From IMG/VR virus record IMGVR_UViG_2681813272_000008: 6,495 nucleotides of DNA; one strand, given 5' to 3'. The notes under the pieces were generated by a model, which was not told the origin of the DNA, did not search any database, and was given only the letters and a program-made list of their open reading frames with translations. Numbering within the stretch: position 1 is the stretch's first letter; each line of letters opens with the position of its first letter. The stretch is from a virus. Lineage: Duplodnaviria; Heunggongvirae; Uroviricota; Caudoviricetes. Below are positions 4,229 through 4,702 of the stretch, piece after piece. Both the position numbers and the translations under genes were made by a program.

Positions 4229-4702
4229 TTGTCGGTCAGGTTACGTAGTGAACCTCTGGCAGGGGACTGATGATTCATCATTCTGGTGTTGTAAATATCT
4301 CTTCGGACAACTTACAAAATATTCTAAGCAAACCCCGGGAACACACTCTTAACTGCCTTGGCTGGCGGTTTTTTGTACAGCGCTCGGTATGTGTGAGCTG
4401 GAAATCAGATTTTGCATGGACTGGAATCATGCTGTTATTTAGGGGCGAAGAACTGGCTTTTTCTTCCGCCTTCTCACCAGTAACGATTAGAAAAATAATG
4501 AAATGCCCCCCTCCGGGGAGGAGGACCGTAGAAAAAAGGACCCGCCAGCAATCTGAGTAGCGAAAGCTGTTCATCCCCAATGTTTTTGCTGGCGGGTAAA
4601 GTTCCTCATGAATTAAGAATGCTACGCGATCTTTTTTAATGGAAATGAAAATTATTGTCAATTAGTCGTGCGTGTTTTTTCATACAATATTGGTAAAGGT
4701 GA
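4229..4702 (+). repeat. 474-bp direct repeat, copy A (partner 5791-6264), upstream of the truncated IS911
   Basis: Base-by-base comparison at constant offset 1562: identical to copy B except substitutions at 4272 and 4275 and inversion of the 34-bp segment 4552-4585. Right edge abuts the IS911 internal breakpoint. Confidence 0.9.
4540..4597. repeat. 12-bp inverted repeats (ACCCGCCAGCAA / TTGCTGGCGGGT) around a 34-bp segment, orientation A
   Basis: Left arm 4540-4551, inner segment 4552-4585, right arm 4586-4597. The inner segment is the exact reverse complement of the one in copy B (6114-6147). On the - strand the hairpin is followed by a T-run (+ strand AAAAAAGG at 4532-4539). Confidence 0.9.

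Follow-up and report, generated by a model that had tools for sequence, protein, structure and literature searches.

The upstream of two copies of a prophage module carries a 34-bp hairpin loop in flipped orientation, in a 6,495-nt stretch of DNA (hereafter the window, meaning the whole of the stretch that was analysed). The two copies, A and B, hold this loop between the same perfect 12-bp inverted repeats. The state of copy A is found in this window only, and the approximately 1,500 other copies, from assembled genomes and contigs, are fixed in the orientation of copy B. The flipped loop is very probably the product of a single recent template-switch event, or of a RecA-independent exchange between the arms that would be indistinguishable from it.

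The window is the replication-to-lysis section of a decaying lambdoid prophage of the Shigella/EIEC kind. According to the ORF list and a Pfam scan, its gene order is an IS3-family end, a DnaB-like helicase, RusA, the antiterminator Q, an ORF6N protein and a class II holin; the coordinates of the features are collected in Table 1. We take the IS3-family end to resemble that of IS2. Shigella-type chromosomes (loci L121–L125) are arranged in the same way and have a 409-aa HTH_Tnp_1/rve transposase there. The cluster of Rfam matches at 2576–2991 sits between the Q gene, upstream, and the antirepressor-like ORF6N gene, downstream, and looks like an antisense-controlled module of the P1 immI/Gifsy-1 isrK type placed inside a lambdoid late region. 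A promoter-like stretch followed by a terminator (ACCCGCcgatgaGCGGGTTTTTTT) is present at 3604–3695, with 88% identity to K-12 DLP12 DNA about 120 bp upstream of essD. The stretch probably holds the late promoter (Q-dependent) and tR' of such phages, placed here before the tRNA genes and not beside the holin gene. DLP12 itself is without the module and shares with the window only 3610–3691, upstream of essD; as this is the only stretch in common, IpeX/nmpC was rejected as an explanation. The plus-strand terminator ahead of the holin gene (GGCCATCAG-N7-CTGATGGCC followed by a T-run, about 35 bp from the start codon) may keep transcription from leaking into the lysis genes in the lysogen, and it accounts for the weak sRNA-like Rfam matches over 6208–6304. 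Searches of INPHARED in near and distant modes showed that isolated phage genomes are without the module and match only over 50 bp near the holin gene.

Table 1 Features of the window and of the module, with positions in the window unless another locus is named.
Feature	Position	Strand	Remarks
IS3-family element, terminal 51 bp	1–51		Adjoins the region upstream of the DnaB-like gene
Antiterminator Q gene	2162–2548		
c4-a1b1	2576–2628		Rfam match above gathering score
isrK	2589–2665		Rfam match above gathering score
C4 antisense RNA	2691–2774		Rfam match above gathering score
sRNA-Xcc1	2908–2991		Rfam match above gathering score
Four prophage tRNA genes (CAT, Arg-TCT, Thr-TGT, Gly-TCC)	3782–4092	+	Immediately upstream of module A
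Module copy A	4227–4702	+	Non-coding; after tRNA genes; GT haplotype (G 4272, T 4275); loop inverted
Second minus-strand hairpin	4505–4526	-	Also at 6067–6088; just downstream of the T-run
Minus-strand T-run, CCTTTTTTC	4531–4539	-	Same run at 6093–6101; directly 3' of the hairpin; kept in four module families
Left 12-bp arm, copy A, ACCCGCCAGCAA	4540–4551		Same arm in copy B at 6102–6113
34-bp loop, copy A, derived (flipped) orientation	4552–4585		Unique to this window
Right 12-bp arm, copy A, TTGCTGGCGGGT	4586–4597		Same arm in copy B at 6148–6159
IS911 without its last 162 bp, including IRR	4703–5790	-	RefSeq IS911-family annotation, 99.7% identity
Module copy B	5789–6264	+	AG SNP haplotype; loop in universal orientation; IS911 IRL abuts left edge
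58-bp hairpin, copy B, ancestral orientation	6102–6159	-	-28.3 kcal/mol, z = -4.9
Plus-strand intrinsic terminator	6268–6300	+	Between module B and holin gene; kept in all module families
Start of class II (phage 21 type) holin gene	6335–6495	+	PF04971, E = 1.5e-24; RefSeq annotation
Core copy in locus L002	3856–4203		
Core copy in locus L004	4001–4344		
Core copy in locus L005	4001–4348		

The two module copies, each of 476 bp, lie on either side of the truncated IS911. Besides the loop they differ by only two SNPs, at 4272 and 4275, and within 4276–4702 every mismatch between them falls in 4552–4585. This segment is the exact reverse complement of the copy-B loop (6114–6147), with length and arms unchanged. 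The arms, ACCCGCCAGCAA and TTGCTGGCGGGT, are perfect 12-bp inverted repeats standing 34 bp apart and 100% complementary in both copies, and between A and B the 58-bp units show 100% complementarity. With a limit of 60 bp on the spacer, the window contains two perfect 12-bp inverted repeats, compared with a mean of 0.02 in 300 shuffles, and the exact 34-bp reverse complement is not a matter of chance. Direct comparison of both copies thus confirms the inversion between 12-bp arms that the original prediction had described. Its statement that nothing else had changed holds for the hairpin and its flanks, 270 bp to each side, but not for the whole module, which carries the two SNPs. The 39-mer GAAAAAAGGACCCGCCAGCAATCTGAGTAGCGAAAGCTG could serve as a tag for the copy-A orientation.

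A 118-bp query for each orientation was searched against 5,426 complete E. coli genomes, with a coverage threshold of at least 80%. Every one of the 1,377 records matched by the copy-B query passed this threshold; they amount to 1,393 places in 1,368 of the 5,426 genomes. With the copy-A query, no A-oriented place was found among the complete E. coli genomes. This query reaches at least 80% coverage in nine records (EIEC genomes, end to end), at an identity of 83.9%, since the mismatched loop is included in the alignment; in the remaining records the match is limited to the palindromic unit of 58 bp and falls on the opposite strand. A scan for the arm pattern gave 44 viral contigs and four places in species-representative genomes (Shigella flexneri and E. 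coli), and among metagenome contigs the A junction is present in none and the B junction in 65. The loci fetched for closer comparison (139 in total) comprise the viral, species-representative and metagenome loci, ten Shigella-type chromosomes reached via the ORF6N protein, and contigs reached via the B-type ORF. All 139 hairpins in them are B-oriented relative to their flanks, with four loop sequence variants. The protein records give the same picture: exact look-up found neither of the two ORF products specific to the A orientation, the B product is on record, and a search of the 127-aa ORF exclusive to A against 5.8 billion protein clusters returned two partial proteins, both translating the B orientation.

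The closest relatives of the window are Shigella-type chromosomes. Eight of them (L120–L123 and L125–L128) are 99.3–99.6% identical to positions 1–4702, and seven of the eight differ nowhere but in the loop, by 8 mismatches and 9 gaps. Since these single-copy relatives (L120–L128) match 1–4702 except in the loop, the flip must be recent. The B orientation, being the one found in close relatives, is the ancestral state. The comparison of orientation in related genomes that had been proposed as a check therefore has a uniform answer, B in all of the approximately 1,500 copies. In such assembled sequences, flipping at low frequency within a culture would not show.

The presence of two copies has a history of its own, which involves IS911. 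The end proper of this element is at 5790, and at the 4702/4703 junction the last base of module A is joined bluntly to the IS911 interior, with no microhomology. Among the fetched loci, no other module copy has this junction, and the product of the IS911-junction ORF has no exact match on record. The GT and AG haplotypes are each already present in single-copy modules of separate prophages, and an in-situ tandem duplication was therefore rejected as the source of the two copies. In other loci, too, a module next to IS911 always carries AG, as copy B does. The two copies therefore stem from two prophage lineages that a rearrangement brought together. A similar layout of module, truncated IS911 and module, with another deletion endpoint, is seen in L013. 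The 4702/4703 junction lies 105 bp from the flip, and one complex replication accident could be behind both.

For the flip itself we infer a template-switch mechanism acting during replication. The nascent strand would switch template to the complementary strand within the first 12-bp arm, the 34-nt loop would be copied off the opposite strand, and the nascent strand would switch back within the second arm. A RecA-independent exchange between the arms would give an equal product, from which the two routes are not distinguishable. As single-stranded DNA, each strand of the 58-bp unit gives a good fold (-14.8 kcal/mol, z about -4.2). Template switching at quasipalindromes is reported, from the Lovett-lab assays, to be raised in hosts deficient in exonuclease I/VII. 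Of the two copies of the non-coding module in this decaying lambdoid prophage, the event would have struck the one that is redundant and promoter-distal. The truncated IS911 cuts copy A off from the holin gene, so that selection on this copy is probably relaxed.

The sequence features of this class of mutation, namely perfect short arms, an exact reverse complement and a derived state in one lineage, are all found here. Template-switch spacer inversions have been described in yeast genes and rRNA, with spacers of 2–8 nt (PMC8604942, PMC8794818, PMC7202029), and loop inversions in RNA hairpins, bacterial rRNA included, have been attributed to an inter-strand mechanism (PMC8794818). The present inversion resembles these in its perfect arms of more than 9 bp, its exact reverse complement, its position on a terminal branch and its RNA-hairpin-like site. 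It differs from them in the length of the spacer (34 bp) and in being seen between two paralogous copies of one genome, where the template-switch cases were seen between strains. Hairpin-linked small inversions of 4–50 bp are pervasive in plastomes (PMC12371153). The minute inversions of chloroplasts (Kelchner & Wendel 1996, as cited in PMC12371153) are likewise loops of 4–50 bp between short inverted repeats, in non-coding DNA and often in terminator-like hairpins. In that account they recur and are homoplasious within lineages, whereas here the flip is seen once in approximately 1,500 copies, and the plastid is a different genome with different replication and recombination systems. The spacer of 34 bp is at the long end of the reported range (2–8 nt, and 4–50 bp in plastomes), and this counts against the template switch.

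It is hardly credible that the segment is an active DNA inversion switch, in which the 34 bp would flip reversibly, as in phase variation, and toggle a minus-strand RNA element or the C-terminus of an ORF. The resemblance to fimS (FimB/FimE), Hin/Gin/Cin/Pin, the Bacteroides invertons and the shufflons lies in an inverted-repeat-bounded segment found in two orientations, which here coexist in one genome, and in favour of a switch the hairpin is also conserved and plausibly functional. Unlike the invertons, however, the segment is about ten times shorter, its orientation is fixed in the approximately 1,500 other copies, which represent four sequence families and come from several datasets, and the window has no recombinase gene for it. 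The original prediction was right on this last point as regards invertases: the ORF list and Pfam give no invertase, integrase or tyrosine recombinase gene within the window, and the sole mobile-element enzyme seen is the IS911 DDE transposase; a recombinase acting in trans might be encoded outside the window. No promoter-like site was found inside the 34 bp by the promoter scan. Known site-specific invertible segments are hundreds of bp long (314 bp for fimS, about 1 kb for the Hin segment), and a 34-bp duplex is too short to loop and synapse its own 12-bp ends. With 34 bp far below the known sizes, an inversion made by a recombinase is an unlikely route.

The inversion had also been expected to change the C-terminus of the only ORF in the module. 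Mechanically this is the case, since ORF 4270–4560 ends in ...QQSE and ORF 5835–6128 in ...QQKHWG (96 or 97 aa), but the ORF is probably not a gene, which counts against a switch. In the Pfam scan the ORFs of the module and its surroundings had no match except for the IS911 transposase, RefSeq annotates no gene at this position in nine genomes, and the 5' part of the ORF starts outside the conserved core; indels in other module families break the frame. The original prediction had offered a switch and template switching at a hairpin as alternatives, and had regarded a fixed orientation as an argument against the former. Such a fixed orientation is what the survey found, and of the two readings it is template switching that fits all the data.

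Since the allele is unique, a sequencing or assembly artefact is a live alternative, although we consider it unlikely. Copy A would then truly be B-oriented, and the flip would have been made in silico or in library preparation. Both the uniqueness of the allele among all public copies examined and its location in a region of repeats and IS elements, where assembly is difficult, are in line with this. A consensus or k-mer error would nevertheless not typically leave the arms intact and the flanks perfect around an exact 34-bp reverse complement, because the 12-bp arms are shorter than the usual k. The only independent support for the flip comes from a second assembly (L014, an IMG/VR scaffold), which is 100% identical to the window, has an equal two-copy layout, and may be a draft assembly of this strain or of a sister strain. 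It carries an N gap at 4112–4114, corresponding to window 4551–4959, that reaches from the first base of the copy-A loop into IS911; this position fits a real branch point at the loop, without amounting to proof. A second N in L014 is located at an insertion after tRNA-Gly. Very improbable, in our judgement, is the transfer of a patch by gene conversion from an oppositely oriented copy elsewhere, with the 12-bp arms as the sole homology. Inverted donors do exist, as Shigella/EIEC genomes carry 2–4 module copies on both chromosome strands, but RecA-dependent conversion needs more than 12 bp of homology on each side. Moreover, the product would be indistinguishable from that of an intermolecular template switch, so that mechanistically this explanation collapses into the template switch preferred here.

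The hairpin that was hit by the flip is widespread. It is present in about 25% of E. coli genomes, and 639 plasmid places were counted in the complete ones. In prophages its place is after the tRNA genes and ahead of the class II holin gene. The conserved core of the module, approximately 4392–4702 and 5954–6303, recurs at 78–89% identity in three other settings: ExPEC prophages, the pap-linked island of Nissle 1917, where the copy adjoins an Rz fragment, and IncF/ColV plasmids, where a prophage remnant with the core lies at a distance of about 400 bp from iss, a serum-resistance gene. Nothing in the core is better conserved than the 58-bp unit (95–98%).

The suggestion that the minus strand may carry a terminator or an RNA element at this site is consistent with both the sequence (stem and T-run) and its conservation. 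In the universal orientation, the predicted minus-strand RNA fold comprises, besides the 12-bp stem, an inner helix of 8 bp capped by a GAAA loop, and 12 nt that stay open. Folding of both orientations, which had been proposed as a further check, gives -26.3 kcal/mol for the flipped 58-nt unit (A) and -28.3 kcal/mol for the universal one (B). The outer stem and the U-run are kept after the flip, the inner helix is lost, and the loop becomes its own complement. Two G-U pairs in the inner helix would be A-C mismatches if read on the plus strand, and the four loop substitutions among the families are all at unpaired positions. As all pairs are invariant, a covariation test of the minus-strand fold speaks neither for nor against the structure.

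The GC-rich 12-bp stem is followed by a U-run (CCUUUUUUCU) that is conserved in four module families, and the complement of 4532–4537, after the stem, reads CCTTTTTTCT. In this the hairpin is like intrinsic terminators and the 3' domains of Hfq-type sRNAs such as the PapR-like element nearby in related prophages (PMC4546395), having on the minus strand a GC-rich 12-bp stem, then CCUUUUUU, with an AU-rich stretch upstream. It is unlike intrinsic terminators in its loop of 34 nt with an inner helix, compared with the usual 3–8 nt, for which the inner 8-bp helix partly compensates; a scan for consensus terminators did not list it. A search of Rfam, with the whole window and with the module alone and at E up to 10, gave no family over 4540–4597 or 6102–6159. 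On the minus strand, about 35 nt before the hairpin, a perfectly conserved TTGACA stands 17 bp upstream of a weak TAAAAA, a candidate -10 hexamer without the conserved final T, and the promoter scan did not accept this pair. Judging from the sequence, the hairpin may be a minus-strand intrinsic terminator, and it might form the 3' domain of a small RNA, about 100 nt long, that would be antisense to the leader of the late operon. We see only a slim chance that it is the 3' domain of an unannotated minus-strand sRNA whose loop would flip recurrently and reversibly without a recombinase, as an off/on control, with the window showing a rare "off" copy.

Known RNAs were also considered. PapR was tested since the Nissle 1917 copy is near papI, and its identity with the hairpin was rejected, the window having no match to the 5' and 3' ends of PapR as given by primers JMJ835 and JMJ836 (PMC4546395). 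A 19/22 match to the PapR 3' end (JMJ836), a terminator, is found in L007-type relatives only, at a distance of about 240 bp from the hairpin. In L007, an ExPEC-type prophage, the DNA that borders the conserved core on its left (3712–3950) carries an STnc100 sRNA (Rfam, 114 bits), with the PapR-like terminator on the other strand. With its STnc100 and PapR-like 3' end, L007 marks this prophage position as a small-RNA hotspot, although both elements are absent from the window. A hok/sok-type or other type I toxin module was rejected as well, no suitable small ORF being conserved across the module families. Text searches of the literature with the arm and loop sequences returned only irrelevant matches.

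The flip is not a programmed switch but a further instance of a known mutation class. As a switch the feature would have been remarkable, and the data speak against it; it stands as a warning to inverton-finding pipelines that call switches from inverted repeats and two orientations. What it offers is a clean and datable natural case, in enterobacteria, of the inversion of a 34-bp hairpin loop, with an ancestral state known from approximately 1,500 copies. With the closest relatives matching over 4.7 kb but for the loop, it is a textbook-grade example of a template-switch mutation. The hairpin itself, conserved, fixed in orientation and unannotated in prophage late regions and iss-linked plasmid remnants, is a reasonable candidate for a terminator or sRNA.
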